NCBI GenBank assembly: GCA_028687915.1
Contig: JAQTZF010000001.1
Coordinates: forward strand, 1,966-65,965
Origin: Candidatus Daviesbacteria bacterium
Lineage (GTDB): Bacteria; Patescibacteriota; Microgenomatia; Daviesbacterales; UBA10151
DNA length: 64,000 nt
Direction of reading: 5' to 3'
How positions within the stretch are numbered: position 1 is the stretch's first letter; each line of letters opens with the position of its first letter. The translations under genes were made by a program, and so were the position numbers. Shown here piece by piece: positions 1-34,285 of the stretch. The notes beneath the pieces were generated by a model. The model did no database searches, was not told the origin of the DNA, and saw nothing but the letters and a program-made list of their open reading frames with translations.

Positions 1-230
1 TTTCAGGGTGCGGAGGAGCTTCTACTGTTATTCATGTTAACTTTGATACTTTTCCTGCTGGAGCTCAAACTATTTACTATTATTATGGTAACCTTTCAGC
101 CTCAGATGGTTTTAATCTGGCTGATTTTGCTACTCAGGCTTCTAATTATACTGTAGGTTCTTTGGGATCAGAGGAAAAAAGTGTGGGACCAGTAGCTTAT
201 TGGGGATTTGATGAAGGGCAAGGCCAAACC
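1..230 (+). repeat. Segmental duplication: nt 1-230 are identical to 5110-5340 (tandem paralogous genes)
   Basis: Direct comparison shows no mismatches over ~230 nt. Further identical blocks at 760-860/5950-6050, 2090-2400/7320-7640, 2780-2940/8050-8200 and 3600-3830/8810-9040. Confidence 0.85.
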
Positions 231-3200
231 ACCCAAGACTCCAGCCCTAATAACCTAGATGGGACAATTTCAGGAGCCACCTGGGAAACAGAAGATCAAT
301 GTGTTACTGGAAAGTGTTTATTTTTTGATGGTTCCACTAGCGGTGTCAGTTCTTCCAACAGCAGTCTTTTATCTCCAGCCAATATTACACTTTCGGTCTG
401 GATAAAACCTACTTCCCTACCTACTCTTAACCAAGTTATGGGAATTATAGATAAAAGAGATAACGCTGGTGGTTCTGCTGGATATGTGCTTGAACTTTTT
501 AATAACGGAGGAACTCAAGAAATTTTATGGATTACCCCCGCCGCCTCCGAATTCGTTACAACCTTACCTACTAATACCTGGTCCCATATTGTAATCACCC
601 ATAATGATACTACTGCAACCTTATATCTAAACGGCCAGAATCTTGGTTCTAAACCAGTAGCTCCTATAACTGATTACAATACTTCCCTCCTTATCGGTAG
701 AAGATCTGATGGTGGTTATTTTAAAGGTTTTATTGATGATGTAAAGATTTATCCATTTGCCAAAACTGCTGCTCAAGTAAAGGCTGATTATATCTCTAAA
801 TCAGGAAGCTCTTCTGACCAAGGCTCTTCTGCAGTACTTGGAGCACAAAGCCAAAAATACCTATCTGATGGTTTAGTAGGTTACTGGAAGATGGAAGAAA
901 GTTCTGATGGATCTGGAGCTGTTACTAGAAATGATTCTTCTGGAAATGGGAATAATGTGACTGATAACAATACTGTAGGTTCTGGAGCTGGTAAATTTAG
1001 CAATGCCGCTGATTTCGCACTAAGTAATAGTAATGAAATGCTCTCTATAGCCCATGCGTCTCAAACAGGATTAAACCCCTCTAGCCAAGTTACAGTAGCA
1101 GGATGGGTCAATCCCAGAAGTGTATCCTCAACAGAATGGATTATCTCTAAAGGAACATATAACTGCTGTGGCACACCCGCTTCCTATAATTACGCCTTGC
1201 GAATGTATAATGGAGGCCAGGTACAGTTTTCAGTCAGCACTAACGGAACTTCTTATGATGCATCAGCTTATTCCTCAGTCAGTTTAACCGCAGGAACATG
1301 GTATTACTTAGTCGGTGTTTATGATGGTAAAAATCTACAAGTTTACGTTAACGGTACCCCGGGAACAAGTGCTGCTTTAACAGGGAATATTTACAACAGT
1401 GCTGGTAATTTTACCATTGGAGCAGAAGATTTTGGAAACAATGGTGACCCTATTGGTAATGAATTTGATGGCTCAATTGATGAAGTCAGAGTCTACAACC
1501 GTGCCCTATCCCCCAAAGAAGTTTCTGATTTATATAACTGGGCACCAGGTCCTGTAGGATATTGGAATTTTGAAGAAGGATCAGGCACTGCTGTTAATGA
1601 TACATCTGGTACAGGAAACGCTGGCACTTGGAATGGAGATGGAACTCATTGGACTTCTGGAAAATTTGGCAAAGCTGGAAAATTTAATGGAACTACTGAT
1701 AATGTCCAAATGGCCTCAGCTAGTATTAATACTACTAATCCTTATACCATGGAGGCTTGGATTTCCCCCTTAGATCCTATAACTGAAGGCTGGGACAGAT
1801 TAATTATGGGAAATCAGTTTGGAGATTATCTTTATATTTATGGTACTTCTGGTACTTGGCAACTAAAAATTGGCAGTGCTTATTCAACTACTAATGTTTT
1901 AACCAAAGGCACCTGGCAACATGTAGCAGTAACTTATAACGGCCCTAACACTTATAAAATTTATGTTAATGGTGTAGATGTTACTTCTTCAGGAACAGGA
2001 ACTGGAACTGATAACAGCTCTATTATCTTTGTTGGAAGCAAGTGGGATCTAAGTTCTGCATATCAAGGGAATATTGATGAAGTTAAAATATATAACTATG
2101 CCAGGACCCAAAAACAAATTGTTTCTGATATGAATGGAGGGCATCCTGCAGTTGGATCTCCGGTGGGATCTGCTGTAGGTTATTGGGATTTTGATGAAGG
2201 AGCAGATAATAAATGTTCTGGAGGCACAAATGATGTTTGTAATTCAGGTTCAGGAGGATCTGCTTTAGATGGAGCCCAGTCTGGCATGAGTGTTCCAGCC
2301 ACCACCACCTCAGGCTGGACAAACTCAGGTAAATTTGGCAAAGCTCTAATTTTTGATGGGACTGATGATTTTATTAGTGTTGCTAATAATGCAGCTTTAA
2401 ATACTACCAGTGGATCAATTTCTACCTGGGTCAAACTTTCGGATTTACCTTCCACGAACTATACTGTTGCTTCTAAATGGATCAATGATCCTTATGGGTA
2501 TAGACTACTTATTACCTCCAGCGGACAAGTTCAGATGCAGGTAGGTGATGGGAGTGGAGCCGATACAGTAACCTCAACAGCCGCATTAACTCCAGGTACT
2601 TGGGTTCACTTAGTCGGAACCTGGAAAGCAGGTGCCGGAACTACACTCTATTTTAATGGTGTTCCTACTTCTGCGCCAGTTGGAACAAGAACTATTTCAT
2701 ATTCAGGCACTCCCGGAGCTTTAAATATTGGAAAAAATATATCTGAGTGGTATTTAAAGGGTGCAATTGATGAGTTTAAAATATATCCATATGCCTTAAC
2801 TGCTGATGAGGTTAAAACAGAGTACAACAGAGGGCAATCTTTAGTCTTAGGAGCTGCTGGGAATAATTCTACTTATGCCTCTCAAGCTGCTAATCAGGAA
2901 TATTGTGTGCCTGGGGATACCACTAGTTGTGCTGGACCTATTGGAGAATGGAAATTTGAAGAAAAAAGTGGCCAATCAATTTATGATACTTCTGGGAATG
3001 GCAACACTGGCACTTTAGGTATTGCTGGCAGTGCTAATACAGATGACCCTACTTGGACTTCTGGAAAAATAGGTGGAGCACTAAGTCTGGATGGCAGTAA
3101 TGACACTATTAATTTAGGTTCAGGCAGTAATTTAGATGATTTAGCTGCCGGAGATTTTACTGCTGAGACATGGGCATATCTGATTGATAGAGCTCCGATC

Positions 3201-4391
3201 AGCGGAAATGATGCTATTACTTTAATGGAAAAGATACATGATCCAGGCGGCTGTGTCACCCCAAATGGCTGGTTTTTAACCTCAAACAATTCCAATATGA
3301 ATGTAATTTTTTCTGTCCCTCATGGAACCACTACTGCAACCTATCGATCCGCTCTAAATGTTCTTACCAAAAATTCCTGGCAACATATTGTGGCAGTCTG
3401 GAATGGCACAGCCAAAACAGCAAAAATTTACGTTAATGGAAAAGAGGTTAGCTACCAGACCCAAACTCCAGGAGTAGGAACTTTAAATACTGATGCAAGT
3501 GGAAACTTAAGAATGTCTGGTTCAGCCTGCTCTGCATTTGCTATTAAGGGCAAGGTTGATGAAACAAAAATTTTTAATTACCAACGCACTCCTGCTCAAG
3601 TGGCCTGGGATTATAACAAAGGTGGACCTGTAGGATCCTGGGATTTTGATGAATGCCAGGGTACTTCTGCCTATGATTTATCTGGAAACTCTAATACAGG
3701 CACAATTACCATTGGAACTGGTGCAGGCACAGGACAACAAGATTCTGTTGGTACTTGCACTACTTCTACTGTTACAGCTTGGTATAACGGCAGAACTGGT
3801 AAAAGAAACGCTTCACTTAATTTTGATGGAATTGATGATTATGTCCAAACAGGTACTAATTTACTTGGTGGTAAAAGTATGGCAACTATTTCTACCTGGA
3901 TTTATCCCACCAGTTTTTCTGCTGATGTTTATCTTTCCAGGTTTGTATCCAATGTTACAACTATATTAGGCTGGCAAACAGCTTATACCAGCGTAGGCAG
4001 CCCAAGAGCAGCAATAGCAATTCAAACAAATAATAATCCAGCAAATGTTATCGGATATGGAAATACAGTTCTTTCTGCAAATAATTGGTACCATTTGGTT
4101 GCTGTATATGATGGTACTGCTACCGGAGATGCTAATAGACTCAAGCTTTATCTAAATGGTAAACAAGAAACATTAACCTATGATGGTACTGTGCCTGCAA
4201 CTATATATGATTCAGGAACTAATATAGGTTTCGGAGCTGATTCAGGATTTAGCCCTAGTGCCAGTTATCCCTATGCTACAGGAAAGATTGATGAAGCAAA
4301 AGTTTTCAATTATGCTTTAACTTCTACACAGGTTAAAAACTTATATAATAATGGAGCTGTATTTTACGGACCTTCTACGGGTTCCCCGTAG
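1..4391 (+). CDS. Giant LamG-repeat surface protein, 5'-partial (frame 3 continues from upstream of the window). Tandem paralog of 4823..9616.
   Basis: Open frame runs from nt 3. nt 1-230 are identical to 5110-5340, which lie inside the neighbouring gene, so the true start is upstream of the window. At least 7 LamG/concanavalin-like modules, each ending in the motif D[DE]xx[IV][YF]N[YR]ALxxxE[IV]xxxY (e.g. DEVRVYNRALSPKEVSDLYN, DEVKIYNYARTQKQI, DEFKIYPYALTADEVKTEYN). Confidence 0.8.
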   Translation, partial: SGCGGASTVIHVNFDTFPAGAQTIYYYYGNLSASDGFNLADFATQASNYTVGSLGSEEKSVGPVAYWGFDEGQGQTTQDSSPNNLDGTISGATWETEDQCVTGKCLFFDGSTSGVSSSNSSLLSPANITLSVWIKPTSLPTLNQVMGIIDKRDNAGGSAGYVLELFNNGGTQEILWITPAASEFVTTLPTNTWSHIVITHNDTTATLYLNGQNLGSKPVAPITDYNTSLLIGRRSDGGYFKGFIDDVKIYPFAKTAAQVKADYISKSGSSSDQGSSAVLGAQSQKYLSDGLVGYWKMEESSDGSGAVTRNDSSGNGNNVTDNNTVGSGAGKFSNAADFALSNSNEMLSIAHASQTGLNPSSQVTVAGWVNPRSVSSTEWIISKGTYNCCGTPASYNYALRMYNGGQVQFSVSTNGTSYDASAYSSVSLTAGTWYYLVGVYDGKNLQVYVNGTPGTSAALTGNIYNSAGNFTIGAEDFGNNGDPIGNEFDGSIDEVRVYNRALSPKEVSDLYNWAPGPVGYWNFEEGSGTAVNDTSGTGNAGTWNGDGTHWTSGKFGKAGKFNGTTDNVQMASASINTTNPYTMEAWISPLDPITEGWDRLIMGNQFGDYLYIYGTSGTWQLKIGSAYSTTNVLTKGTWQHVAVTYNGPNTYKIYVNGVDVTSSGTGTGTDNSSIIFVGSKWDLSSAYQGNIDEVKIYNYARTQKQIVSDMNGGHPAVGSPVGSAVGYWDFDEGADNKCSGGTNDVCNSGSGGSALDGAQSGMSVPATTTSGWTNSGKFGKALIFDGTDDFISVANNAALNTTSGSISTWVKLSDLPSTNYTVASKWINDPYGYRLLITSSGQVQMQVGDGSGADTVTSTAALTPGTWVHLVGTWKAGAGTTLYFNGVPTSAPVGTRTISYSGTPGALNIGKNISEWYLKGAIDEFKIYPYALTADEVKTEYNRGQSLVLGAAGNNSTYASQAANQEYCVPGDTTSCAGPIGEWKFEEKSGQSIYDTSGNGNTGTLGIAGSANTDDPTWTSGKIGGALSLDGSNDTINLGSGSNLDDLAAGDFTAETWAYLIDRAPISGNDAITLMEKIHDPGGCVTPNGWFLTSNNSNMNVIFSVPHGTTTATYRSALNVLTKNSWQHIVAVWNGTAKTAKIYVNGKEVSYQTQTPGVGTLNTDASGNLRMSGSACSAFAIKGKVDETKIFNYQRTPAQVAWDYNKGGPVGSWDFDECQGTSAYDLSGNSNTGTITIGTGAGTGQQDSVGTCTTSTVTAWYNGRTGKRNASLNFDGIDDYVQTGTNLLGGKSMATISTWIYPTSFSADVYLSRFVSNVTTILGWQTAYTSVGSPRAAIAIQTNNNPANVIGYGNTVLSANNWYHLVAVYDGTATGDANRLKLYLNGKQETLTYDGTVPATIYDSGTNIGFGADSGFSPSASYPYATGKIDEAKVFNYALTSTQVKNLYNNGAVFYGPSTGSP

Positions 4392-4437
4392 AATAGTATC
4401 TGGTATCTAGTATTTAGTATATGGCAAATATAAAAAA

Positions 4438-4812
4438 ATGGAAAATAATAAAATAAAATCTTTTACTGATTTAATAGCTTGGCAGGAATCACATCAGTTA
4501 GTCCTGATCATTTATAAAATGCTTAAAACTTTTCCCAAAGAAGAGGTTTTTGCTTTAACTGATCAAATGAGAAGATGCTCTATTTCTATTAGTTCAAATA
4601 TTGCAGAAGGATTTTCTAGACAAGGGAAAAAAGAAAAAATGCAATTCTACTATATGGCAAAAGGATCACTAACCGAACTTCAAAACCAGCTCTTAGTTAG
4701 TAGAGACGTGGGTTATATTTCAAAAGAGAAGTTCACTGAAATAGCAGATCAAACAGTATTAGTACATAAATTATTAAATGGTCTGTTAAAATCTTGTTTC
4801 GCAAAATACTAA
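4438..4812 (+). CDS. Four-helix-bundle protein (23S rRNA intervening-sequence protein family, TIGR02436-like; Avd-like fold family)
   Basis: 124 aa. Motifs WQESHQLVLIIYKMLKTFPKEEVFALTDQMRRCSISISSNIAEGFSR ... AKGSLTELQNQLLVSRDVGYI match the family consensus W.KA..L...IY..T..FPK.E.Y.LT.Q.RRA..SI..NIAEG ... GS..EL.T.L.IA...GYI. Confidence 0.8.
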   Translation: MENNKIKSFTDLIAWQESHQLVLIIYKMLKTFPKEEVFALTDQMRRCSISISSNIAEGFSRQGKKEKMQFYYMAKGSLTELQNQLLVSRDVGYISKEKFTEIADQTVLVHKLLNGLLKSCFAKY

Positions 4813-4822
4813 ATACTAAATT

Positions 4823-7800
4823 ATGAAGCTAAATACTAAATACAAAATACTAAATACAAAAAAAATACTCACTCTTACTATTTTAGCCCTTTGTACAGGG
4901 ATTTTCTTGTGGTTCTTTACTAATCCAGCCTCTGCTGCCTGGTGGGATGATAGTTGGACTTTTAGAAAATCAATTGCTCTTACCAACAATACCACTGCTG
5001 AAACAAATGTTTATGTTTCAGTAACTATTAATACAACAGATACATCCAGATTCCAGACTGATTGTGGTGATGTAAGGTTTACCAAACAAAATGGTGAACT
5101 ACTTCCCTATTATATTGTTTCAGGGTGCGGAGGAGCTTCTACTGTTATTCATGTTAACTTTGATACTTTTCCTGCTGGAGCTCAAACTATTTACTATTAT
5201 TATGGTAACCTTTCAGCCTCAGATGGTTTTAATCTGGCTGATTTTGCTACTCAGGCTTCTAATTATACTGTAGGTTCTTTGGGATCAGAGGAAAAAAGTG
5301 TGGGACCAGTAGCTTATTGGGGATTTGATGAAGGACAAGGCCAGACTACTCAGGATTCTAGTACTAATAATTATGATGGAACTTTGGGGGCCACTACTGG
5401 CTCCTCTACAGATGATCCTACCTGGCAAACAGAAGATATGTGTATTTCTGGTAAATGTTTAAAGTTTGATGGTGGTGACTATGTCAGTGGCGGTGATGTT
5501 AACCAAGTAGACAATGTTTCAGCTATCACCGTATCAGCCTGGGTAAAAGTAAATACAGCTACTAATTGGGCAGGTGTAATGGGAAAATCAAGTTCTGGTA
5601 CCAGTCGTTGGGGTATGGAACTGGCAGAAGCAAGCTATGGAGGAACTGATGATGTATTTATCATGATGGGTAATGGTGCCAACTCGTATGGTTACACCCA
5701 GGGAAATATTATTGATACTAATAAATGGCATCTTTGGACTATGGTTTTTGATGGAACTCAATCTGGAAATGCCAACCGTCTTAAATTTTACCTGGATGGA
5801 ATCCAAAGACCCCTTAATTTTGGAGGCACTACCATCCCTGCTACTACTCCTTCAAACAGTACTCCAATCACCATAGGTGCTGAGAATGCTTCCAGTTCTT
5901 TTTTAAATGGAATGATTGATGAGCCAAAAGTCTATAACTATGCTAAAACTGCTGCCCAAATCAAAGCTGATTATATCTCCAAATCAGGTAGTTCTTCTGA
6001 CCAAGGCTCCTCTGCAGTACTTGGAGCATCTTCTCAAAAATACCTTTCTGATGGATTAGTAGGATACTGGAAAATGAATGAAGCTTCCTGGACTAATAAT
6101 TGTTCTGCTGCTTCTGTAACAGATTCTTCTGGTAATGGTAATAATGGTAAGGCATGCCCAAATGCAACAGGACCAACAGGAGGCAATATTGGTACTTTTG
6201 GTAATGGTGGATCTTTTGATGCAGTTGATGACAATATAGCAGTAACTCATGCTAGTTCACTTAGCCTAACAGATTCTATTACTATATCTACCTGGGTTAA
6301 AGTTACCTTAAATAATTCCTGGTCAGATCATGTTATTTTATATAAACAAAACGGAGCCACGTTAAATTATGCGTTTGGAATTAGAGAACAAAATGGTTTA
6401 TTCCCTGATTTTGCATATACTGATGGATCAGGATCAAATAACCATAAATGGAGATCAACTACAGCAATAAGTGCTGACACCTGGACCCATATTACTGTGA
6501 CCTATTCTTTTGGTAAAGCTAATACGATGGCTATATATATTAATGGTGTTCCAGCTAGTGGATCCTGGATTAGCGGTAATGGTAATAGTTCTGCTGATAC
6601 AACCACTACTGACTTATTAATATCTCCTGGAAACAGTACCCTAGATGACCTCCGTATTTATAATAAAACCCTGTCCCCCAAAGAAGTTTCTGATCTCTAT
6701 AACTTTGCCCCAGGGCCAGTAGGATATTGGAATATGGATGATAAAGTTTCTGGTGATTCCAAAACTGTAGTTGATTCCTCTGGTAATGGGAATAATGGGA
6801 CCACAAGTTACGGTGCAAATACCTCTGGCATGGATTGTTCTAAATCAGGTAAGTTTGGTGGTGGCTGTACCTTTGATGGTGTGGATGATTATATTGATGT
6901 AGGATCTGATACTTCTTTAGATAATCTCCCAAATGGAGATTTTACAGCTGAGGCTTGGACAAGATTTGATGCCGCACTTACAGAAACATATTGGCTGATT
7001 CTTGGAAAAACTAAATGGCAGATCGAACCGTTTTATAATGGTGCCCAATCTTCAATTTGGTTCTTTGTAGACATGGGAGCTGGGACTAGTATGGATTACC
7101 GTTGCCAATTTACCTATGACAGAGGTAATTGGCATCATATTACAGGAGTTTATACAGCCAGCACTAAAACAGCGGTAGTTTATTATGATGGCACCCCCTT
7201 AACTTGCTCAACAACTACTGCCGGTGTTGGTACTTATATTGGAGATGCTGCAAGCCCAATGAGAATTGGTATGAATCAGGGTGATGGAACCCCTAAAATG
7301 AATGGTGGACTTGATGATGTCAAAGTTTATAACTATGCTCGTACTCAGAAACAAATTATCTCTGACATGAACGCAGGGCATCCTGCTGTTGGCTCCCCTG
7401 TGGGATCAGCTTTGGGATATTGGAAATTTGATGAAGGAGCAGATAATAAATGCTCTGGAGGCACTAATGATGTTTGTAATTCAGGCTCAGCTGGCTCTGC
7501 TTTAGATGGAGCAGAATCTAATATGAGTATTCCAGCCACAACTACTTCTGGCTGGACTAATTCTGGTAAATTTGGCAAAGCTTTAATATTTGATGGAAGC
7601 AATGATTTTATTAGTGTTGCTAATAATGCAGCTTTAAATTTTGACACTGGCTCTTTTTCTATTTCAACCTGGATGAAAACAACATTTTCAGGAGCAGGAG
7701 AAAAAATACTTATAAGAAAAGATCTAGAATCTCAATCTCCCAGAAGACTTTATACTCTTTTCTATAATCTTGTAGCTAATAAAGCAACTTTTGATCTCTA

Positions 7801-9616
7801 TGACAATGCTACTGAATATAAAGCCACTTCTCTTACCTCAGTAAATGATGGTAATTGGCATCATATTGTTGGAGTAAGAGATTCAACAACCAATCAAATC
7901 AAATTATATGTTGATGGAAAATTGGAAGCTAGCACAGCTATAACTGGAATTAACATAACTAATACCGGGGTGTTAAAATTTGGTAGTTACACAGAAACTG
8001 TCGGTGCCTTTTTCTCCGGTTCCATTGATGAAAGTAAAATCTATGGCTACGCCTTAACTGCTGATGAGGTTAAGACTGAATATAACAGAGGACAATCTAT
8101 GGTATTAGGTGCTGCTGGGAATAATTCTTCTTATGCCTCTCAAGCTGCTAATCAGGAATATTGTGTCCCTGGAGATACCACCTCCTGTGTTGCTCCTGTT
8201 GCTGAATGGAAGCTTGAAGAAGGATCTGGAATTAGTGCTTATGATACTTCAGGAAACGGATCAACCGGGACTTTGACTAATACTCCTGTTTGGACCAATG
8301 GCAAGTATGGTAAAGCGCTTAATTTCTCTGGTACATCATTTATAAATGTAACTGATAGCAATAATTTAAGTCCTGCAAGCAACACATTTAGCGTTGGTGC
8401 TTGGATATACTTAAATTCTACTGGTTCCTATCAAACAATTGTTTCTAAGGATAGTGATGCTGCCAATGGAGGAAGAGAATATTTCTTATATATAGACATC
8501 TCAAACGTAGTAGTTTTTGGAGCTTCTACAAATGGTAATGATATGCCGGCGGTTGTCGGGCTCAGTACTTTATCAGCTGGCAGGTGGTACTATATTGAAG
8601 CTGTTTTAAGCGGATCAAACCAAATGATCTATGTAAATGGTAAGCTTGATAATTCTGCTAACTGGGGTGGCAGCAGTATTCCTAATACTAATACAGCACT
8701 TAATATTGGCAGAAGAAATACTGCCCCTGTAACTAAAGCCCAAATGGATGGTAAAATCGATGACGTCAGATTGTATAATTATGCCCATACCCCTGCTCAG
8801 ATTGCCTGGGATTATAATAAAGGAGCACCTATTGGGCACTGGAAATTTAATGAGTGCCAGGGAGCTACAGCTAATGATTCTTCAGGGAATTCCAATACTG
8901 GAACTATTACTATTGGCACAGGTGCTGGCACAGGACAACAGGATTCTGTAGGAACCTGCACTACTTCTGCTGTTACAGCCTGGTACAACGGCAGAACCGG
9001 AAAAAGAAATTCCAGTCTTAATTTTGATGGGATTGATGATACAGTATCTATTGCCAACCAAGCTAATTTTTCTTTTGAACGCACACAACCATTTTCTATC
9101 TCTGGGTGGATCTATCCAAATATTACCCGCTCCGGATTGCAAATGACTTATGCGATTTTTAGCAAATTAACAAATAACTCACCTTTCACCGGCTATGAAA
9201 TGAATCTGGAATGGAATAATGCCACCCTCACAAATAGAACAACGCTTCAAATTTACTTAATTAGCAGCTGGCCTTCAAACCGAATTACTGTGAACGGTTC
9301 AACAGATCTCCAAAACAGTAGATGGTATCATGCAACATTAACTTATGATGGCTCTTCAGCTGCCAGCGGTGTTAAGCTTTATATAAACGGAGCTGCGGAA
9401 AAGATTACCACTAGTGTTGATGCTTTAACCACAAGTATTGTTAACAACTTAACCCCTTATATTGCCTCCCGACAAAATTCCAATAGCTCAGAAGCCTTAT
9501 TTAATGGCCAGATTGATGATGTGAAAGTTTTTAACTATACCCTTACCTCTACACAAGTTAAAGATTTATATAATGGCGGAGCTGTAAACTTTGGTCCGGT
9601 TACAGGCAGCCCATGA
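4823..9616 (+). CDS. Giant surface protein: signal/TM anchor, DUF2341-like N-domain, then ~8 LamG (concanavalin-like lectin) modules
   Basis: 1597 aa. N-terminal hydrophobic helix. AWWDDSWTFRKSI...DVRFT...LPYYIV...YYYYGN fits DUF2341. Repeated LamG terminal motifs (DDLRIYNKTLSPKEVSDLYN, DDVKVYNYARTQKQI, DESKIYGYALTADEVKTEYN, DDVRLYNYAHTPAQIAWDYN, DDVKVFNYTLTSTQVKDLYN). Long blocks are nucleotide-identical to the gene at 1..4391. Confidence 0.85.
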   Translation: MKLNTKYKILNTKKILTLTILALCTGIFLWFFTNPASAAWWDDSWTFRKSIALTNNTTAETNVYVSVTINTTDTSRFQTDCGDVRFTKQNGELLPYYIVSGCGGASTVIHVNFDTFPAGAQTIYYYYGNLSASDGFNLADFATQASNYTVGSLGSEEKSVGPVAYWGFDEGQGQTTQDSSTNNYDGTLGATTGSSTDDPTWQTEDMCISGKCLKFDGGDYVSGGDVNQVDNVSAITVSAWVKVNTATNWAGVMGKSSSGTSRWGMELAEASYGGTDDVFIMMGNGANSYGYTQGNIIDTNKWHLWTMVFDGTQSGNANRLKFYLDGIQRPLNFGGTTIPATTPSNSTPITIGAENASSSFLNGMIDEPKVYNYAKTAAQIKADYISKSGSSSDQGSSAVLGASSQKYLSDGLVGYWKMNEASWTNNCSAASVTDSSGNGNNGKACPNATGPTGGNIGTFGNGGSFDAVDDNIAVTHASSLSLTDSITISTWVKVTLNNSWSDHVILYKQNGATLNYAFGIREQNGLFPDFAYTDGSGSNNHKWRSTTAISADTWTHITVTYSFGKANTMAIYINGVPASGSWISGNGNSSADTTTTDLLISPGNSTLDDLRIYNKTLSPKEVSDLYNFAPGPVGYWNMDDKVSGDSKTVVDSSGNGNNGTTSYGANTSGMDCSKSGKFGGGCTFDGVDDYIDVGSDTSLDNLPNGDFTAEAWTRFDAALTETYWLILGKTKWQIEPFYNGAQSSIWFFVDMGAGTSMDYRCQFTYDRGNWHHITGVYTASTKTAVVYYDGTPLTCSTTTAGVGTYIGDAASPMRIGMNQGDGTPKMNGGLDDVKVYNYARTQKQIISDMNAGHPAVGSPVGSALGYWKFDEGADNKCSGGTNDVCNSGSAGSALDGAESNMSIPATTTSGWTNSGKFGKALIFDGSNDFISVANNAALNFDTGSFSISTWMKTTFSGAGEKILIRKDLESQSPRRLYTLFYNLVANKATFDLYDNATEYKATSLTSVNDGNWHHIVGVRDSTTNQIKLYVDGKLEASTAITGINITNTGVLKFGSYTETVGAFFSGSIDESKIYGYALTADEVKTEYNRGQSMVLGAAGNNSSYASQAANQEYCVPGDTTSCVAPVAEWKLEEGSGISAYDTSGNGSTGTLTNTPVWTNGKYGKALNFSGTSFINVTDSNNLSPASNTFSVGAWIYLNSTGSYQTIVSKDSDAANGGREYFLYIDISNVVVFGASTNGNDMPAVVGLSTLSAGRWYYIEAVLSGSNQMIYVNGKLDNSANWGGSSIPNTNTALNIGRRNTAPVTKAQMDGKIDDVRLYNYAHTPAQIAWDYNKGAPIGHWKFNECQGATANDSSGNSNTGTITIGTGAGTGQQDSVGTCTTSAVTAWYNGRTGKRNSSLNFDGIDDTVSIANQANFSFERTQPFSISGWIYPNITRSGLQMTYAIFSKLTNNSPFTGYEMNLEWNNATLTNRTTLQIYLISSWPSNRITVNGSTDLQNSRWYHATLTYDGSSAASGVKLYINGAAEKITTSVDALTTSIVNNLTPYIASRQNSNSSEALFNGQIDDVKVFNYTLTSTQVKDLYNGGAVNFGPVTGSP

Positions 9617-14261: not shown

Positions 14262-15031
14262 ATAGAATTTTTAAAATTTATCAAAATCAGCAGCATTTTT
14301 TTCTTGGGTTCACTGGTGCCCTTATTTTCCTAACCATATGGGAGATTATTACCAGGACAAAAATAATCAATCCCATCTTTCTAAGTCCACCCACAGAAAT
14401 CTTACAAACAGAATGGATCCTTTTTACATCCGGTAAAATCTTTCCTCATCTTTTTATATCTTTACAAGAATTTTCATTAGGTTTTGCCATAGCAATAATT
14501 CTTGGAGTATCTTTGGGACTGCTCATTGGTTGGTATAAAAAGATAGAAGCTTTAACTTCATCACTTATCTACAGCCTTTACTCTACCCCCAACATTGCTT
14601 TGCTACCATTGATCATTATTTGGACCGGACTTGGAATATGGTCCAAAATTATTGTGGTTTTTCTGGGAGCATTTTTCCCAATCTTAATCAATACTATCGC
14701 GGGGGTTAAAAACCTAGATCCTAATTTAGTTTCTCTTGCCCGCTCATTCGGGGCAACAGAAAGTCAAATATTCAAAACAATTATTTTTCCTGCATCCCTA
14801 CCCTATATTTTAACCGGATTTAAACTAGCTATTCCCCGAGCAATGATTGGAATGATTATTGGGGAATTCTTTGTTTCCAATCAAGGACTGGGATATTTAA
14901 TTACTTTTTACGGTTCAACCTTCCAAACAGCAGAGATTCTGGCAGTAGTTGTAATTGTAGTAATTATTAGTGTTTCCCTGACTAAACTATTGTCATATCT
15001 GGAAAAACATTTTCAATCCTGGAAAGTTTAA
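14258..15031 (+). CDS. ABC transporter permease (SsuC/TauC-like, BPD_transp_1)
   Basis: 257 aa, ~6 TM segments, EAA-like loop region (ARSFGATESQIFKTIIFPASLPYILTGFKLAIPRAMIGMIIGEF). Translationally coupled (4-nt overlap) to the upstream ATPase gene. Confidence 0.8.
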   Translation: MNRIFKIYQNQQHFFLGFTGALIFLTIWEIITRTKIINPIFLSPPTEILQTEWILFTSGKIFPHLFISLQEFSLGFAIAIILGVSLGLLIGWYKKIEALTSSLIYSLYSTPNIALLPLIIIWTGLGIWSKIIVVFLGAFFPILINTIAGVKNLDPNLVSLARSFGATESQIFKTIIFPASLPYILTGFKLAIPRAMIGMIIGEFFVSNQGLGYLITFYGSTFQTAEILAVVVIVVIISVSLTKLLSYLEKHFQSWKV

Positions 15032-16308
15032 TCTAAATGAGAAACTATTTTTTTGTGTTTACTACTCATCGGAAAGCTATTGATAAACTCCACCTCTAAC
15101 GGTTTAAATATCTCTTCGGAAACCAAACTGGCTAAAGTGCGCCTGGCAGATAAATACAGCTCCTCACTAAATCCTTTTACTATTAATTTTATTAGCTTTT
15201 CTGACTTACCCTGATAACCTTTTTTTAAGATAAGCTGTAACTTTAACCTTGGAATTATTTTTTCTTTTTCTAAATCCTCAAAGACGTGTAACTGGAATTT
15301 AGGTGATGATAGATATTGTTGGAAAGGAAGCAGGGCTTTTTCTACTAAGTCTGCATAAATAAAAACTCCATGTATTTTTAAAGCATCATAATTAATTCTA
15401 CCCAATATTTTAAATCTTTCTTTTTGGCCACACCCACAATCATAATCCTCTACTTCTATTGCATCACCTGTTTTGTACCTAATTAATGGAAACCCATTTT
15501 TATATAAATTAGTAAGAAAAAGTTCGCTGTCTCCGCTTGAATTAATAACTTCATAATAATAATTTGAAGATTTATGGAAGTAATTAGTGCTAAGAGTATC
15601 CAGGCACCCACAACTTAAACCAATCGCCCCTCCCTGGGCTTCTGACATTCCATAATTATAAATAAACCGCGTGTTTTTAAATTTTTTCTTAAATATCAAA
15701 TCCTTTTGTTTGGAACAAAATTCCCCAATTAATGAAATTCTTTTAATATTATCTAAACTATATTCTTTTTCTAAAAACGGTATAAAAAAATATAGGGCTG
15801 TTGGTGAAGTTACAAGTAAATCTATTTTTAATTTGGCAGCAATTTTAGCTGAAAGCGGTAGATTATTAATATCACCTAATACACAAACCGCATTATCCTT
15901 TATTCTTTTTCTATCAAGTAAATGCATGGCAGCTTGATGTGGAGATAATAATTTCATTATAGATGTTACATGAAAGTCATCCCTCGACTTACCTCCTTTA
16001 TCTTTATAAATTTGCCTGGCAAGATTTTGCTGTCTAAATACCACAGATAAAGAGTTTATATTTTTGGTAGTACCACTGGAAATACTCACTGTCCCAAATT
16101 CACTCCAGGGTAAATAAAATCTGCTAAAGGGATCAGAACTAACCAATTCATCTTTAGTTAAATATGGAAGTTTTTTAAAATCTTCCATACTATTAATATC
16201 TTTAATTAAATTTATTCCAGCCTTGGTATATTTATCTTTATAAAAAGAAGAATAAGGAGAGTTCCAGACAAACTCTAATATTTTTTTAATTTTTGAATCT
16301 AATTTCAT
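15028..16308 (-). CDS. PaaK/CapK-like adenylate-forming ligase (phenylacetate-CoA ligase / coenzyme F390 synthetase family), paralog 1
   Basis: 426 aa. N-terminal FYKDKYTKAGINLIKDINSMEDFKKLPYLTKDEL matches the PaaK pattern (YR..F...GV.P.DI.SLEDL.KLPFT.K.DL). SSGTT motif (ISSGTTKN). Size typical of PaaK (~430 aa). Confidence 0.75.
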   Translation of the reverse strand: MKLDSKIKKILEFVWNSPYSSFYKDKYTKAGINLIKDINSMEDFKKLPYLTKDELVSSDPFSRFYLPWSEFGTVSISSGTTKNINSLSVVFRQQNLARQIYKDKGGKSRDDFHVTSIMKLLSPHQAAMHLLDRKRIKDNAVCVLGDINNLPLSAKIAAKLKIDLLVTSPTALYFFIPFLEKEYSLDNIKRISLIGEFCSKQKDLIFKKKFKNTRFIYNYGMSEAQGGAIGLSCGCLDTLSTNYFHKSSNYYYEVINSSGDSELFLTNLYKNGFPLIRYKTGDAIEVEDYDCGCGQKERFKILGRINYDALKIHGVFIYADLVEKALLPFQQYLSSPKFQLHVFEDLEKEKIIPRLKLQLILKKGYQGKSEKLIKLIVKGFSEELYLSARRTLASLVSEEIFKPLEVEFINSFPMSSKHKKIVSHLD

Positions 16309-16309
16309 T

Positions 16310-17599
16310 CTATTGGTGATAAATAATATTTATATTTTTAGGGGGCACATATTCTATGGATTGAACAAACTCTACCTCTATAGGCAAAAACCTTTTTTGC
16401 TTAACTAATTCTTCAAGACTTTCCATGGATTCAAAAAATAATTTTTGATTTATAGCTTTTACTATCTTTTTTTTAGCACTGCTTTTATTAATACCTTTTC
16501 CCAGCATTAACTGAAAATGTAATCTGGGTAATTTGTTCTTTTTATCTTTTTCATATATATGTAATTTCCAGTTAGAAATATCTAAAATATCTTTTTGAGA
16601 AACAATTAAATCATCAATTGGTTCCGGATAAAAATAGATTCCTCCTGCTTTAATGACATCAGTTCCAATCCTTCCAAAAACCTTTATTACCTCTTTCTCC
16701 CCACACTGACAATCTTCTATGTAGCTTTTAACCATATCCCCTGTTTTATATCTGATTAAAGGCAACTCTCGTGAATTATCCAGATGTGTTACTACTAATT
16801 CACTTTCTTCTTTTGGATTAATAAACTCATAATATAAATGTGGTCTGGGATGTAAAAGTTGTGGAGATTGTTTAACCAGGTACTTACAGCTTCTTCCCAT
16901 ACCACCAACTCCTGTAGCAGCATACTTAAGATTAAAATAAGCGTTGGGAAACTTTTCCTTAAAATAACTGAGCCTTTCACTGGAACGATATTCCCCTCCC
17001 ATACTTATATACTTAATCTTTTTTAAGTCATAAAATTTTTCAAGATGTGGAAGTAACCTGGTGAGATTAGAGGGTGATATTATCATCGAATCTACCCGAA
17101 GTTTTGACATTAACATAGCAGTTGATGGCATATTATAAAGATTAGCTAAATAACGGTTAATACTTTTATGCCTTATTTCCAGAGAATCTAAATAAATAAC
17201 CGGCACAAGAAAAATCATGCAGCTTTTAACCCCTAGCTCCACTGCCTTCTGAGACATTTTCTTAGTACGGGCGTTTAACTCATTTGCTCTTAAGATAACC
17301 ACCCGATTTTCAGACGTAGTACCGCTTGAAATACTATAAAGTTTAAATTTATCAATTGGTAAATAGAACCTGTCAAACGGATCTGAATTGATAAAATCTT
17401 CCCTGGTTAAATATGGAAGTTTTTTAAAATCTTCCATGCTATTAATATCTTTAATTAAATTTATTCCAGCCTTGGTATATTTATCTTTATAAAAAGAAGA
17501 ATAAGGAGAGTTCCAGACAAACTCTAATATTTTTTTAATTTTTTTAAAGATAACCTCTTCTCTACTCTTTTTCATAATGCTAATATAACAGATACTCAA
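16310..17599 (-). CDS. PaaK/CapK-like adenylate-forming ligase, paralog 2 (true start may be Met9 at 17575)
   Basis: 429 aa. The N-terminal block LEFVWNSPYSSFYKDKYTKAGINLIKDINSMEDFKKLP is identical to that of paralog 1. ISSGTTSENRVVIL motif. Confidence 0.75.
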   Translation of the reverse strand: MSICYISIMKKSREEVIFKKIKKILEFVWNSPYSSFYKDKYTKAGINLIKDINSMEDFKKLPYLTREDFINSDPFDRFYLPIDKFKLYSISSGTTSENRVVILRANELNARTKKMSQKAVELGVKSCMIFLVPVIYLDSLEIRHKSINRYLANLYNMPSTAMLMSKLRVDSMIISPSNLTRLLPHLEKFYDLKKIKYISMGGEYRSSERLSYFKEKFPNAYFNLKYAATGVGGMGRSCKYLVKQSPQLLHPRPHLYYEFINPKEESELVVTHLDNSRELPLIRYKTGDMVKSYIEDCQCGEKEVIKVFGRIGTDVIKAGGIYFYPEPIDDLIVSQKDILDISNWKLHIYEKDKKNKLPRLHFQLMLGKGINKSSAKKKIVKAINQKLFFESMESLEELVKQKRFLPIEVEFVQSIEYVPPKNINIIYHQ

Positions 17600-20841: not shown

Positions 20842-21879
20842 ATGAATAACAAAAAAATATTATTATCTATAGTGGTATTACTTATCCTTGGCCTTAGCGC
20901 TTTCTTTTTCTTTATTAACTTTAATAAAACTCCAAGCCCTGTAAATACAAAGCCAGCTCCCTCTAGGATAAGCGTTGCCTATATTAGTTTTAATAAAATG
21001 TATGGCATCCCTTTAATAATCGCTGAAAATACTGGACTATTTAATCAATATAATCTTTTAGTGGAGACCAAAGCTACTGATAAAAGCCCGACAAAACTAC
21101 TCGTCGCAAATCAGGTAAATACAATTTTAAACACTCCTTTTGCCCCACTCACAGCAAATACTGAAGGAGCAACCCTTTCCTGGGCCGGAACAATATTTAA
21201 TGATTCGCCTATCGTCTTAGTTTCTTCCAAAGAACCTCAAAATATCAAAACTGTAAGCTACCCTGCCGGAGGAGGAGTCCTGGGTAAAACCAGAACTATT
21301 CAATTATTAAAAGCACTTAATTTGGATCCCGCTAAGATTGTTCTAAATGAAGTTAGTTCAGAACAAATAGCTATGACCACTCTGACAGAAGACAAAGTAG
21401 ATGCTGCTGCAAACATTACAAAAAGTGACTGGTTAATTTTTAAGAAAAAAAATAACTCAGAAAATAATAAATATAAACTCTTAGTCTACTCTGTTGAAAA
21501 AGAAAACCTGCAAATAAGCGGCGGCATTATCTATAGCAAGGATTTTTTAACCGATAATAAGACAACTGCTGAAAACTTTAGTAAAGCCTTAATTGAAGCT
21601 ACCGCCTGGACACGTCTGAATAAAGAGAAAGCAATTGATATATTGGCTAATAAATATTCTATTGAGAAAGACGAAGCAGAAATTTATTGGGATGAGTTTG
21701 TTGCTGTAACAAATAATGTAACTTTTGCCCCTAATTTAGACCAGGCTGAAACACTTTTACAAATCATTAAAACAACAAATCCTAAAGCAGAAACATACCA
21801 GGCAAGTTCTTTTATCTCTACTGACATAAACAACTCTTTAAAGAACAGCGGTTATTTGGAAAAATTCGGATTTAAATAG
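20842..21879 (+). CDS. Membrane-anchored ABC substrate-binding protein, NMT1/SsuA-like (paralog C, more divergent)
   Basis: 345 aa, same architecture. Shares TKSDWLIFKKK, ALIEATAW and NPKAETY blocks with A and B. Confidence 0.55.
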   Translation: MNNKKILLSIVVLLILGLSAFFFFINFNKTPSPVNTKPAPSRISVAYISFNKMYGIPLIIAENTGLFNQYNLLVETKATDKSPTKLLVANQVNTILNTPFAPLTANTEGATLSWAGTIFNDSPIVLVSSKEPQNIKTVSYPAGGGVLGKTRTIQLLKALNLDPAKIVLNEVSSEQIAMTTLTEDKVDAAANITKSDWLIFKKKNNSENNKYKLLVYSVEKENLQISGGIIYSKDFLTDNKTTAENFSKALIEATAWTRLNKEKAIDILANKYSIEKDEAEIYWDEFVAVTNNVTFAPNLDQAETLLQIIKTTNPKAETYQASSFISTDINNSLKNSGYLEKFGFK

Positions 21880-23149
21880 TTTCAACAAAAATCGATTTCT
21901 GCTTGGGAGAAATCTGAAAGCCATCTACAAATTCTATTTTTAAAGCAGAAAACATTTTCTCTTCTACCAATTGAGAAAATGTTTTACCAGACAAAAAATG
22001 AATATTATCACTAACTAGTTTTTCCAGATCTGACTTAATATTTTTATTAAAATTATCTTTAACAATAAGCTGTAACTTAAATTTAGGAAGAGATTTATCC
22101 TTAATGGAATTTGTTATAAATAATTTCCAGGCAGCAGCGCTTAAGTATTTACCAAGAGGATATATAGCTTTATCTATTTGCTCTCTGTAGATTAGATTAC
22201 CTTTTACTCTAACATTATCCATTCCAATCCTGCCATAAATCTTCATCTTCATACTCCTTCCACATTCACATTCTTCTTGATAAACTTTTGCCATATCCCC
22301 TGTTTTATATCTAATAATAGGAAACTCTGTCTTAGTATAAAGACTTGTAAGAACTAATTCACTTTCCTCTTCCGGATTATTTACTTCAAAATAGGTATAT
22401 TGTGTTAACGGATGAACTATATTCTCTGGTGGCTTATTATTATAGAAATCACAAACATAACTCGTTGCCCTGGACTCTGTTAAATTATAGGCAAATCTAA
22501 AATAAGCGTTCTTAAATGTCTTTTTAAAATAATCAAACCTTAAAGGTGAGCAAGGCTCTCCACCAACGCTAATATACCTAATTTGATCTAAAGCTTTTTG
22601 TTTTATCAGATGTGGGATTAGTTGCTCCAAAATAGAAGAGGTAGCAGCAAACCCTTCAATTCTTAATTCCTTAATAACTATGGCAGCGTTCTCTAGATTG
22701 TGAATACTTCCCAAATAACGAGTAATACTTTTATCCTTAAACGCAGGTCTGTTTATTGCCCAGGCAGCAGATGATACTACTACAATCATTGCTGTCTTGA
22801 TTTTTAAATCAAGAGCTTTTTGCACAGCCAATTTATCTGCCGGGTGAGGAAAACCTGCCTTCAGCATAATTAAAATCCCTTTACCTCCTGTAGTGCTGCT
22901 ACTAAACTGGGCACCTTTTATTTTTTCTTTAGGAAAATAAATCCTCTCATAAGGATCAGTCTTAATAATTTCTTCCCGCGTAAGGAATGGAAGTTTTTTA
23001 AAATCTTCCATACTATTAATATCTTTAATTAAATTTATTCCAGCCTTGGTATATTTATCTTTATAAAAAGAAGAATACGGAGAGTTCCAGACAAACTCCA
23101 AAACCCGACGAATCTTTTTAAAATCAGAACTTGTTTGAATATTTTTCAT
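21872..23149 (-). CDS. PaaK/CapK-like adenylate-forming ligase, paralog 3
   Basis: 425 aa. The same identical N-terminal block (LEFVWNSPYSSFYKDKYTKAGINLIKDINSMEDFKKLP). SSSTTGGKGILIM motif. Confidence 0.75.
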   Translation of the reverse strand: MKNIQTSSDFKKIRRVLEFVWNSPYSSFYKDKYTKAGINLIKDINSMEDFKKLPFLTREEIIKTDPYERIYFPKEKIKGAQFSSSTTGGKGILIMLKAGFPHPADKLAVQKALDLKIKTAMIVVVSSAAWAINRPAFKDKSITRYLGSIHNLENAAIVIKELRIEGFAATSSILEQLIPHLIKQKALDQIRYISVGGEPCSPLRFDYFKKTFKNAYFRFAYNLTESRATSYVCDFYNNKPPENIVHPLTQYTYFEVNNPEEESELVLTSLYTKTEFPIIRYKTGDMAKVYQEECECGRSMKMKIYGRIGMDNVRVKGNLIYREQIDKAIYPLGKYLSAAAWKLFITNSIKDKSLPKFKLQLIVKDNFNKNIKSDLEKLVSDNIHFLSGKTFSQLVEEKMFSALKIEFVDGFQISPKQKSIFVETI

Positions 23150-32044: not shown

Positions 32045-32170
32045 TTTGATAAACCCGGCAATGACATATTGTCCCGGGGCCTTTCGACCCTAGTATCGTC
32101 GGCGCTGAAGCGTTTGACTGCTGAGTTCGGGAAGGGATCAGGTCGTTCCGCCTCGCTCAAATCACCGGAC
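32045..32170 (-). rRNA. rrf: 5S rRNA
   Basis: The reverse complement reads CCUGAUCCCUUCCCGAACUCAGCAGUCAAACGCUUCAGCGCCGACGAUACUAGGGUC, which aligns to E. coli 5S CCUGACCCCAUGCCGAACUCAGAAGUGAAACGCCGUAGCGCCGAUGGUAGUGUGGGGUC. Ends are approximate. Confidence 0.7.
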
Positions 32171-32254
32171 GTTTATAATAACAAATTTTGATCTAAGAAT
32201 CAAGAATTAACATTAACAACATGCCTAGAAAAGGCATTCTATTTCTCTTATAAT

Positions 32255-33175
32255 ATGTCTATTAAAAAAGAAGCACTCAGAACCAATCAGACTTGTCCAG
32301 AATATACCCTTCGTTTAGTTGTTGATAAAGAGTGTCCTTTTGACTGCATATATTGCTTTCAAGAAGGAACAAACTATTCTAAATCTAGTTCCCATGAAAA
32401 CCCTGACTTCCTAAGCCTAGTTGATAAGTTTGCAGCCGTAAGACCGATCTCTAAAATACGTTTAACAGGCGGAGAGCCTTTAATTTATGCCCCTCTCCTT
32501 CCTCTATTAAAAGGTTTAAAAAGAAAATTTCCATCTCTTGATCTAGGCATAACGACAAACGGAAGTACACCAAGAATTTTACAAAACGTAATAGAAGAGT
32601 TTACTGATACTCCTTTACATATGAACATTTCAATCCCAAGCCTAAATGAAGAAATGTTTAAGAAGCTAACAAATACAGCAAGGCTACCAGAAGTTTTATC
32701 CTCAGTTAATCAGTTGAGAGAAAGTAGTTTTTCTTCTCACGCAAATATTAATTTTATATTTTTAGAAGGAGTTAATGACCTTGAACTACCAGAAATGTCT
32801 GCTTTTGCTAGAGTAAATAATTTACCCTTAAAAGTTATGCAATTAACAGTTAATGAATTTAATTCTGATGCACTTAGAAGACTAAATACAGGTTCAGCAA
32901 ACCAAAGATTAATCACAGAACGAATACAGGATTTAGGATATCTTCCATCACAGCACCCAGATTCGTTTATTAAAGATGGTCATATAATTCGGGTTATTGG
33001 ACAAGTTGCACCACAAACTGATCAATATTTCAGAGATTATAAAACATTTAGGCTATATTACGACGGGAGAATTGGTATTTGTGGTGATAATGATGGAATA
33101 ATCAGACCAATTAATATGGATAATCCAAGACAAACTTTTTTAGAAGTAGTAACTGAAGCTGAAAAATTCCTCTAA
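32255..33175 (+). CDS. Radical SAM enzyme, MoaA/viperin-like, lacking the C-terminal auxiliary-cluster Cys triad
   Basis: CPFDCIYC (CxxxCxxC) at residues 26-33. RLTGGEPL, GITTNGS, NISIPSLNEEMF and FLEGVND all align to MoaA blocks. The C-terminus has RLYYDGRIGIC but no CxxC...C second-cluster motif. Confidence 0.8.
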   Translation: MSIKKEALRTNQTCPEYTLRLVVDKECPFDCIYCFQEGTNYSKSSSHENPDFLSLVDKFAAVRPISKIRLTGGEPLIYAPLLPLLKGLKRKFPSLDLGITTNGSTPRILQNVIEEFTDTPLHMNISIPSLNEEMFKKLTNTARLPEVLSSVNQLRESSFSSHANINFIFLEGVNDLELPEMSAFARVNNLPLKVMQLTVNEFNSDALRRLNTGSANQRLITERIQDLGYLPSQHPDSFIKDGHIIRVIGQVAPQTDQYFRDYKTFRLYYDGRIGICGDNDGIIRPINMDNPRQTFLEVVTEAEKFL

Positions 33176-33902: not shown

Positions 33903-34213
33903 GCTGTCATTATTTGTCTACAATTACTTGTAGGATCAGACTATACCTTCACCCTGCTTTGCAGGGGCTAGCCTTTTATCCAAGTTTCAAAACCTTGAAT
34001 CCGATCTTTCGATCAAGTCGTTACGGGGTACGTTCATGTAAACTACGTTCGTGTAAACCAAACCGTAATAAACTGAATGTACTTCCCTCGGTGTTGTCCA
34101 TCATTACTGATTAGGAGTTCACCGATTTTAGCTAGTATTTTTTCAAAAAGACTTTTTATATTAAGTTCTAACAGAGCTACAGAATTACTCCTGCCGCACC
34201 CCAATGTATTAAG
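33903..34213 (-). other. Putative ORF-less group I intron in the 23S gene at the L2500-equivalent site
   Basis: A 311-nt AT-rich insert separates ...GGCACCU from CGAUGUCGGCUC. Removing it restores the E. coli PTC sequence GGCACCUCGAUGUCGG exactly. The 5' exon ends in U and the insert ends in G, as in group I introns. No ORF longer than 75 aa. Confidence 0.5.
34029..34058. repeat. Two tandem copies of the 15-nt unit TACGTTCRTGTAAAC (inside the L2500 intron)
   Basis: TACGTTCATGTAAAC followed by TACGTTCGTGTAAAC. Confidence 0.7.

Positions 34214-34251: not shown

Positions 34252-34285
<34 letters not shown>

Follow-up and report, generated by a model that had tools for sequence, protein, structure and literature searches.

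Why does a small gene for a four-helix-bundle protein lie wedged between two genes for giant surface proteins? This question is raised by a stretch of 64,000 nucleotides from a Candidatus Daviesbacteria bacterium (GenBank assembly GCA_028687915.1, contig JAQTZF010000001.1, positions 1,966 to 65,965), hereafter called the window, in which the gene occupies positions 4438..4812 of the + strand. The original prediction, made from the letters and their open reading frames (ORFs), was that the protein might be an accessory variability determinant (Avd) of a diversity-generating retroelement (DGR) acting on the adhesin genes at its sides. Our analysis leads elsewhere. The small gene between the adhesin genes belongs to a cassette of the intervening sequence (IVS) type, and a role in a DGR is not supported. 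Specifically, we propose with a probability of roughly 60% that it constitutes the coding core of a compact, self-contained insertion like those found in ribosomal RNA (rRNA), which here occupies an operon spacer rather than a helix of rRNA.

Inverted heptamer arrays bracket the gene

The two flanking genes, both on the + strand, do encode giant LamG proteins, as had been noted. Paralog 1 (1..4391), whose 5′ end is cut at the window edge, has a frame that is open for 1462 codons, and paralog 2 spans 4823..9616; each contains six Laminin_G_3 stretches. Long segments are shared between the two at 76-95% identity, with bases 1-265 matching 5118-5382 at 95%. In the spacer between them, tandem arrays of 7-nucleotide (nt) units flank the small gene as inverted arms. 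The left arm (4394..4425, + strand) has about four units, AGTATCT, GGTATCT, AGTATTT and AGTATAT, which can be generalized as AGTATNN, and a period-7 array is detected within it at 4396-4420. This arm starts 3 nt past the stop codon of paralog 1, which is the upstream co-directional neighbour of the cassette and lies outside the cassette itself, and ends 12 nt ahead of the ATG of the four-helix-bundle gene (+ strand, 124 amino acids). On the downstream side, a proximal right arm (4801..4821, + strand) composed of AAATACT units runs over the last codons of the gene, which specify K-Y, and over its stop codon. A distal right arm (4828..4862, + strand) follows with about 4-5 AAATAC(T/A) units, and both right arms are complementary to the left arm. 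Many homologs likewise terminate in K/R-Y followed by the stop codon. When one mismatch is allowed, the 13-mer AAATACTAAATAC occurs six times in the 64 kilobases (kb) versus 0.34 expected, and all six occurrences flank this gene.

Measured from the left arm, the cassette is 428 nt long to the proximal and 469 nt to the distal right arm, and its G+C content is 27.7% versus 36.6% for the window. The arms of 24-30 nt are 80-89% complementary, with a predicted pairing energy of about -27 to -31 kcal/mol; they are imperfect because of variation in the 3-nt linkers that separate the conserved 4-nt cores. When positions 4388-4866 are folded as RNA, the minimum free energy structure is predicted to pair the left arm with the proximal right arm, and the centroid structure pairs it with the distal right arm (z = -2.4; 0 of 100 shuffles fold as well). 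Around this copy no promoter-like or terminator-like signal rises above shuffles.

The right arm also supplies the start codon and the signal-peptide N-region of paralog 2. The first 13 codons of that gene (4823-4862; MKLNTKYKILNTK, a lysine-rich, basic N-region) are encoded by the right arm, whose distal part falls inside them. The closest relative of the window copy, P0002, shares 85% identity with it. It comes from a 2.6-kb contig (L087), where an ortholog of LamG paralog 2 (44% identity over 320 amino acids) follows it and an unrelated NYN gene precedes it. Nucleotide similarity between the two contigs begins exactly at the left array and spans the ORF and both right arrays, and the ATGAAGCTAAATACT start of the LamG gene within the right arm is kept despite the 44% identity of the LamG proteins. 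The right arm therefore encodes the N-region in both organisms. A comparison of the two copies gives a ratio of nonsynonymous to synonymous substitution rates (dN/dS) of 0.11 at a dS of 0.81, and the four-helix-bundle protein is under strong purifying selection.

The partnership with LamG genes is confined to this lineage. We scanned species-representative genomes with an alignment of homologs and kept 80 loci, almost all from the candidate phyla radiation (CPR) and two labelled as DPANN archaea, whose copies are 62-77% identical to the window protein; the genome of the window is not among them. A LamG gene lies within 10 kb in only 3 of these loci, and it is never adjacent.

Only two other period-7 arrays are present in the window, at 50877-50894 (TCTTAAA x2.5) and 51121-51150 (CTGATGG x4). 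These two arrays, which are not complementary to each other, fall in the 5′ portion of a SpoU methylase ORF (50635-51201, - strand). The array at 51121-51150 may be situated in the leader of the methylase, because the SpoU Pfam match starts only at residue 37.

Conservation of the architecture in CPR and DPANN genomes

The same design recurs almost wherever the gene is found in these genomes. We read the flanks of 83 genes, for which a simple rule fixed the gene starts, and 82 genes in CPR and DPANN genomes formed the scored set. In nearly all 83, a tandem 7-nt array extends up to or into the ATG, and a complementary array is located at or over the stop codon. Identity at a lag of 7 nt is 0.56 upstream and 0.51 downstream, versus 0.27 for the control, and is equally raised at a lag of 14. 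The inverted-repeat score within a locus exceeds the 99th percentile of shuffles for 79% of the 82 genes, and most genes under this threshold carry arrays that are displaced further out. The arrays are ~25-35 nt long, with about 4-5 units. Each heptamer unit is formed by a 4-nt core (GTAT, GTAG or GAAT) and a variable 3-nt linker.

The two arms of a locus vary in concert. Their core types agree in 52 of the 53 loci that could be classified, and the mean predicted energy of the duplex between arms is -31 kcal/mol within a locus, as compared with -21 across loci and -18 for shuffles. The protein hardly follows these changes, since pairs of loci with the same core share 62.8% protein identity and pairs with different cores share 61.4%.

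Placement within operons is equally regular. In 77 of 82 cases the gene ahead of the cassette runs in the same direction, versus a background rate of 0.76 for neighbouring ORFs within these loci (p = 1.8e-5). Between the stop codon of that gene and the ATG of the cassette gene the median distance is 31 nt, and that from the cassette stop codon to the next ATG is 29 nt, such that the arms fill the spacers.

Period-7 arrays are abundant in these genomes. We count 222 in 1.15 megabases (Mb), compared with 2-19 for periods 5, 6 and 8-11, and within 200 nt of a four-helix-bundle gene they are about nine times as dense. Inverted array pairs number 73; the gene lies inside 42 of them, in most cases within an inner gap of 345-460 nt, and three further pairs enclose diverged family members. 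Hairpins with long arms number 63 in the same 1.15 Mb, and the arms of 30 of them have period 7. At orthologous junctions, the cassette is present in some species, and unoccupied junctions carry inverted-heptamer hairpins that lack the ORF. Examples of such ORF-less hairpins are found at L073:7550-7631, L047:6210-6283, L037:3945-4018 and L082:5595-5680.

In many CPR genomes ORF-less heptamer hairpins fill operon spacers, and their cores differ within one genome; three core types are represented among the hairpins of the genome of locus L007. Heptamer-armed cassettes also occur on the two contigs with DPANN labels (L046, Woesearchaeota; L048, Pacearchaeota), at 65% identity, the level that is seen between CPR classes. 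This points to either cross-domain transfer or mis-binning.

Cassettes beyond the CPR

A tblastn search of plasmids returned 30 records, mostly cyanobacterial, and we read 14 of these plasmid loci as a sample from outside the CPR. In 11 of the 14, the gene is bracketed by inverted heptamer arrays whose sequences are quite different from those described above. The left and right units are AGGGTGT/CTACACC in Calothrix, AGTAGGG/TCCCTAC in Nostoc edaphicum, GTCAGGA/CTCCTGA in Aulosira and GGGAAAA/CCCTTTT in Nostoc ATCC 53789, and similar inverted pairs occur in Geminocystis, Anabaena 90, Stanieria, Picosynechococcus, Leptolyngbya and Riemerella. In Nostoc 7120 there is a downstream array only, which adjoins an insertion sequence. 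Several of the plasmid copies are flanked by cas6 and cas4 or by cmr2 and cmr3, and genes of this kind inside cas operons have been reported earlier (PMC3936711). On the Pseudanabaena galeata plasmid pPg_01 (L088:290-870), the gene lies between cas6 and cas4 with direct arrays on both sides, AAAGCTA x13 or more upstream and AAAAGCC x10 downstream.

Plasmid AZO_p2 of Azospirillum lipoferum 4B provides the link to rRNA. At L086:1440-1900, an unannotated ORF of the family PF05635, to which the window protein also belongs, is located inside a large-subunit (LSU) rRNA gene, at a position that we take to be helix 45. Its arms are inverted heptamers, which include CAGAGGA CGGATGA on the left and ATCCGTC CTCTGTC on the right. 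This cassette, the eleventh of the inverted cases, is a classical IVS, and it has the same heptamer-array arms as the window cassette. The gene table of AZO_p2 lists nothing at these coordinates.

The protein belongs to a large family related to Avd

There is nothing unusual about the gene itself, which belongs to a large family. The protein matches PF05635 (23S_rRNA_IVP) at 128.3 bits, against a cut-off of 33.8, and TIGR02436 at 120.5 bits, against a cut-off of 24. A single protein search returned 4676 relatives at E <= 0.001, of which the best 120 are 66-85% identical, and an identical protein from a Candidatus Daviesbacteria metagenome-assembled genome (MAG) carries the database name 'four helix bundle protein'. 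An AlphaFold2 model built with 41 homologs predicts four long helices with a confidence score (pLDDT) of 95. The family assignment in the original prediction is thereby upheld.

When the model is compared with solved structures by using Foldseek, the top match is Xcc0516 (2GSC; template-modelling (TM) score 0.87-0.96, 37% identity), and the second is BT_0352 (2RLD; TM 0.75-0.88, 20-23% identity). The next are the Avd chains of the Bordetella phage DGR (8UB7, 8UBE and 4DWL; TM 0.75-0.88, 9-12% identity). Thus the fold family does include Avd, as originally stated. Residues R46, S50, N54 and E57 are invariant across 41 sequences and constitute the RxxxSxxxNxxE motif described for the family (PMC3936711). 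Xcc0516 and BT_0352, which share this motif with the window protein, are stand-alone 'S23 ribosomal' proteins. Both crystallized with five chains, as pentamers. Because the window protein is basic (isoelectric point 9.2, net charge +4.7 per chain, resembling the Bordetella protein bAvd) and these relatives are pentameric, it probably binds nucleic acids, by analogy with its relative Avd. A recognizable nuclease or recombinase fold was not found by Pfam, PADLOC or Foldseek, and the PADLOC defence models gave nothing meaningful, the sole weak match being Csm4 (E = 0.013).

A retroelement does not account for the locus

A protein that serves a DGR would be expected to score as an Avd, and the window protein is under the cut-offs of both Avd models (34.4 versus 40 bits for PF22296, bAvd; 32 versus 80 bits for NF033474, DivGenRetAVD). 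The sub-threshold match to PF22296 (E = 3e-8) does represent remote homology to bAvd. This homology is visible solely through the Pfam model, an Avd from the CPR (hhalign of the window family versus the Avd of locus L075, E = 1.8e-5) and the fold, and bAvd of phage BPP-1 gives no alignment with the protein by BLASTP or with its alignment by hhalign.

The remaining parts of a DGR are likewise absent from the window, in agreement with the original description. No reverse transcriptase (RT) domain of the RVT type is found by a Pfam scan of ORFs of at least 100 amino acids between 162 and 60301. When queried against the 64 kb by tblastn, the BPP-1 RT (bRT, from NC_005357) and an RT from a CPR DGR yield noise only (best E of 0.54 and 0.45, respectively), and a motif scan of the 64 kb reveals no ORF that combines RT motif 4 with YxDD. 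Nor does a self-comparison of the 64 kb produce an adenine-biased pair that could represent a template repeat (TR) and a variable repeat (VR). Among its 28 repeat pairs, the share of mismatches falling on one base is at most 60%, and this maximum belongs to a weak 68-nt match. The differences between the LamG paralogs affect all base types, as originally described.

The clearest comparison is offered by the only one of the 80 homolog loci with a bRT-like gene within 10 kb. This locus (L075:817-3558, MAG JAKJDO010000011) is a complete CPR DGR, with a VR of 136 nt (1049-1184) at the 3′ end of an Lcl_C-domain gene, a bAvd-type gene (1649-1984), a TR (2192-2327) for which 20 of 22 mismatches to the VR fall at TR adenines, and an RT gene (RVT_1, 2401-3558). 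A heptamer-flanked cassette (1216-1635) is inserted between the VR and avd, and it encodes a homolog of the window protein (1235-1618). The two proteins have opposite profile scores: the homolog reaches 129 bits with PF05635 and 27.9 with PF22296, whereas the Avd reaches 27.7 and 75.8, respectively. These profiles place the window protein in the non-Avd, IVS branch of the family.

We therefore rejected the gene as a DGR part, on the grounds of its sub-threshold Avd scores, the lack of an RT or a TR/VR pair in 64 kb and the single DGR among 80 loci; the proposal that it is an Avd serving a DGR that diversifies the LamG genes falls with it. Two outcomes had been named in advance as speaking against that proposal. 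One, clustering of the protein with non-DGR members of the family, is what we observe, and the other, absence of an RT from the genome, is observed within the 64 kb. A true accessory protein could still act in trans with an RT and TR encoded elsewhere in the genome. For this speak the fold shared with bAvd and the match to its model, a search that covered 64 kb of a 1.1-Mb genome, and a report that PF05635 is the commonest Pfam family beside DGR RTs (PMC10053308). However, neither an RT nor a TR/VR pair lies in the 4.4 kb upstream or the 59 kb downstream, whereas avd adjoins TR and RT in both BPP-1 and L075; an RT is missing from 79 of the 80 homolog loci; and the L075 DGR employs a separate bAvd-type protein, such that the homolog there is a bystander insertion. 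Together with the scores under the Avd cut-offs and the paralog differences at all bases, these facts make action in trans highly improbable. Since PF05635 hits are common beside DGR RTs, such a hit alone cannot decide DGR membership, and for annotation a PF05635 hit beside a variable gene is no evidence of a DGR. The tempting link between an Avd-like gene and two adhesin paralogs is removed, and nothing in the window points to diversification driven by a retroelement.

A probable IVS-type module in an operon spacer

In Salmonella, Leptospira, Coxiella and Alphaproteobacteria, IVSs form extended stem-loops, and RNase III cleaves the terminal stem. That of Coxiella measures 428-444 nt, has a 28-bp terminal stem cleaved by this enzyme and contains a PF05635 ORF, which is reported to be decaying (PMC4990558). 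ORFs of the 23S_rRNA_IVP family are found in 16S as well as in 23S gene insertions of the CPR (bioRxiv 10.1101/2024.02.27.582315). An ORF-bearing IVS is recognized by a PF05635 ORF between complementary termini, in an element of ~430-760 nt, and the window element, of 428-469 nt, conforms to this. With the Coxiella and Leptospira IVSs it shares the position of this ORF on the sense strand of the host transcript, the complementary termini of about 28-30 nt that bracket it and a G+C content below that of the surroundings; with the Coxiella IVS it also shares its length (428-444 nt versus 428-469 nt). Given that the element has the parts and the size of an IVS, the simplest reading is that it is the same module in a messenger RNA (mRNA) context.

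There are also differences. Unlike the rRNA IVSs, the window copy resides in a spacer between protein genes, and the gene that follows takes its start from the right arm. The 23S rRNA gene of the window (33520-37153) holds no IVS-type insert and carries two group I introns only. The window ORF is under purifying selection, whereas the Coxiella ORF is decaying. Finally, the IVS literature that we searched makes no mention of a 7-nt periodicity in the arms.

We infer for the window cassette pairing of the arms at the RNA level, processing by RNase III, mobility and a possible effect on the downstream LamG gene. Specifically, the cassette would be transcribed by read-through with its host operon, and pairing of the arms would extrude the ORF as a loop, bringing the upstream stop codon beside the downstream start codon. 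By analogy with the IVSs of Coxiella, Leptospira and Salmonella, RNase III would be likely to act on the paired arms once they are transcribed by read-through, and this step would make the insertion tolerable in operons as well as in rRNA. A selfish IVS-type module that is under purifying selection and whose arms pair is the best reading of the data.

Several observations weigh against it. Mismatches of the G:U type and of the A:C type are equally frequent in the arms (65 versus 68), such that the signature of an RNA helix is absent, and duplex energies are alike for the sense and antisense strands (p = 0.17). Without a strand signature of RNA, the arms could instead pair as DNA or act as symmetric binding sites for a protein. 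In the window, the arms fall short of full complementarity (80-88%), and the downstream arm is duplicated and partly coding. As many as 144 of the 222 heptamer arrays are not beside a four-helix-bundle gene; with heptamer arrays so abundant elsewhere, the arms are not exclusive to the cassette. The arrays are direct, not inverted, in 2 of the 14 plasmid loci (Pseudanabaena, and Gemmatirosa with a period of 8). The case for mobility, moreover, comes from the distribution of the cassettes.

Alternative explanations

Some of these observations would be accommodated by a mobile element that operates at the DNA level, in which the arrays are terminal or hairpin recombination sites, the ORF-less hairpins are non-autonomous copies and the protein maintains or moves them, by analogy with RAYT proteins and REPINs. 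The lack of a G:U excess and the equal duplex energies of the two strands are compatible with this, as are the frequency of ORF-less period-7 hairpins (30 of the 63 with long arms) and their presence at junctions orthologous to occupied ones. Both arms switch core type together while the protein hardly changes, many copies are found at contig ends, and the CPR and DPANN homologs are of similar identity. As in REP/REPIN-RAYT systems, a gene lies between short inverted repeats that recur as many intergenic hairpins without the ORF. However, the window protein is not a Y1/HUH transposase (its Pfam hits are PF05635 and bAvd only), and its helical bundle of 124 amino acids has no recognizable nuclease or recombinase fold. 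REPINs share one sequence per genome, whereas heptamers differ among the hairpins of one genome, with three cores in L007, and are defined by their 7-nt periodicity rather than by one conserved sequence. We saw no target-site duplications. Nor would a purely DNA-level element need strong co-orientation with the upstream gene, even if expression of the ORF could account for it. On balance we consider this explanation unlikely.

Alternatively, the cassette could be a regulatory module, whose basic protein, pentameric if it resembles its relatives, binds tandem heptamers in RNA or DNA and controls translation of its own gene and of the LamG gene that follows. The arrays abut or overlap start and stop codons, the LamG start and its first 13 codons are embedded in the right arm and are kept in L087 at 44% LamG identity, and the protein has the basic character of bAvd (isoelectric point 9.2, charge +4.7). 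Relatives that crystallize as pentamers would suit arrays of about 4-5 units, and a preprint on Nostoc proposes that an unidentified protein binds heptamer repeats near start codons (bioRxiv 10.1101/2022.06.06.494920). Against such a module stands the wide divergence of the cores (GTAT, GTAG, GAAT, GGGTGT, CAGAGGA and others) beside a conserved protein, which makes sequence-specific recognition unlikely. Unit numbers from ~3 to 13 also give no fixed match to five subunits, and for this reason the idea that five heptamers correspond to five subunits is unsupported. Regulation therefore appears distinctly unlikely as the main role of the cassette. The suggestion that the arrays serve to place stop codons in all three frames was rejected, because GC-rich arrays such as those in Azospirillum are without stops. 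We return to the IVS-type module as the preferred reading.

Relation to other heptamer repeats

Tandem heptamer repeats have been described in Xanthomonas and Nostoc (PMC4692102), in Beggiatoaceae (PMC4679880) and again in Nostoc (bioRxiv 10.1101/2022.06.06.494920), with their function and binding partner treated as unknown. In Xanthomonas, there are ~70 convergent pairs of GGGAATC arrays (PMC4692102). Like the arms described here, the published repeats are intergenic arrays of 7-nt units that often abut start codons and sometimes form convergent pairs. The papers do not mention PF05635 genes, whereas the window arrays bracket such a gene in inverted orientation. In the literature searched we found no link between heptamer repeats and IVSs or four-helix-bundle genes; an earlier description is possible, as subscription papers were thinly covered. 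Within the same literature, the inverted arms with 7-nt periodicity, their co-variation, the operon-spacer habitat and the ORF-less hairpins at orthologous junctions are apparently undescribed.

ORF-bearing rRNA IVSs have been known since the 1990s. Our findings suggest that these are one habitat of a broader cassette that also occupies operon spacers, with examples between cas genes, between adhesin genes and within a DGR. What appears to characterize it is a pair of inverted arrays of 7-nt periodicity whose sequence drifts while both arms stay matched. If so, PF05635, a family with thousands of copies, may be tied to the tandem heptamer repeats of several phyla.

A more sweeping proposal, which we regard as speculative and rather improbable in its entirety, is that PF05635 proteins and tandem-heptamer hairpins constitute one widespread system. 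The inverted arrays around these genes, whether in the CPR, DPANN, cyanobacteria, Bacteroidota or Alphaproteobacteria and also within rRNA, would be elements of the same kind as the intergenic heptamers of Nostoc, Xanthomonas and others. The conserved, basic protein, pentameric if like its relatives, would then be the missing factor for their binding, maintenance or mobility, the ORF-less hairpins would be non-autonomous, and the Avd of DGRs would be a domesticated offshoot.

Other features of the window

The rRNA genes of the window are dispersed over 32053-44516 on the - strand. The 16S gene (43046-44516) is separated from the interrupted 23S gene, whose group I introns are located at 33917-34196 and 34809-35064, by protein genes that include those for GAPDH and PGK, and a radical-SAM gene lies between the 23S gene and the 5S gene (32053-32169). 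At 56279-56461, two 87-nt copies that are 95% identical and 96 nt apart lie in an ORF with no Pfam match (55158-56918); because the segment is rich in TGT and TGC codons, it probably encodes a cysteine-rich repeat. Finally, three paralogous ORFs of ~425 amino acids occur at 15028-17599 and 21872-23149 on the - strand and have in common a 186-nt block at 82-91% identity. A weak AMP-binding match is seen in one of them only, and the three flank a cluster that encodes an ABC transporter and an NMT1-like binding protein.

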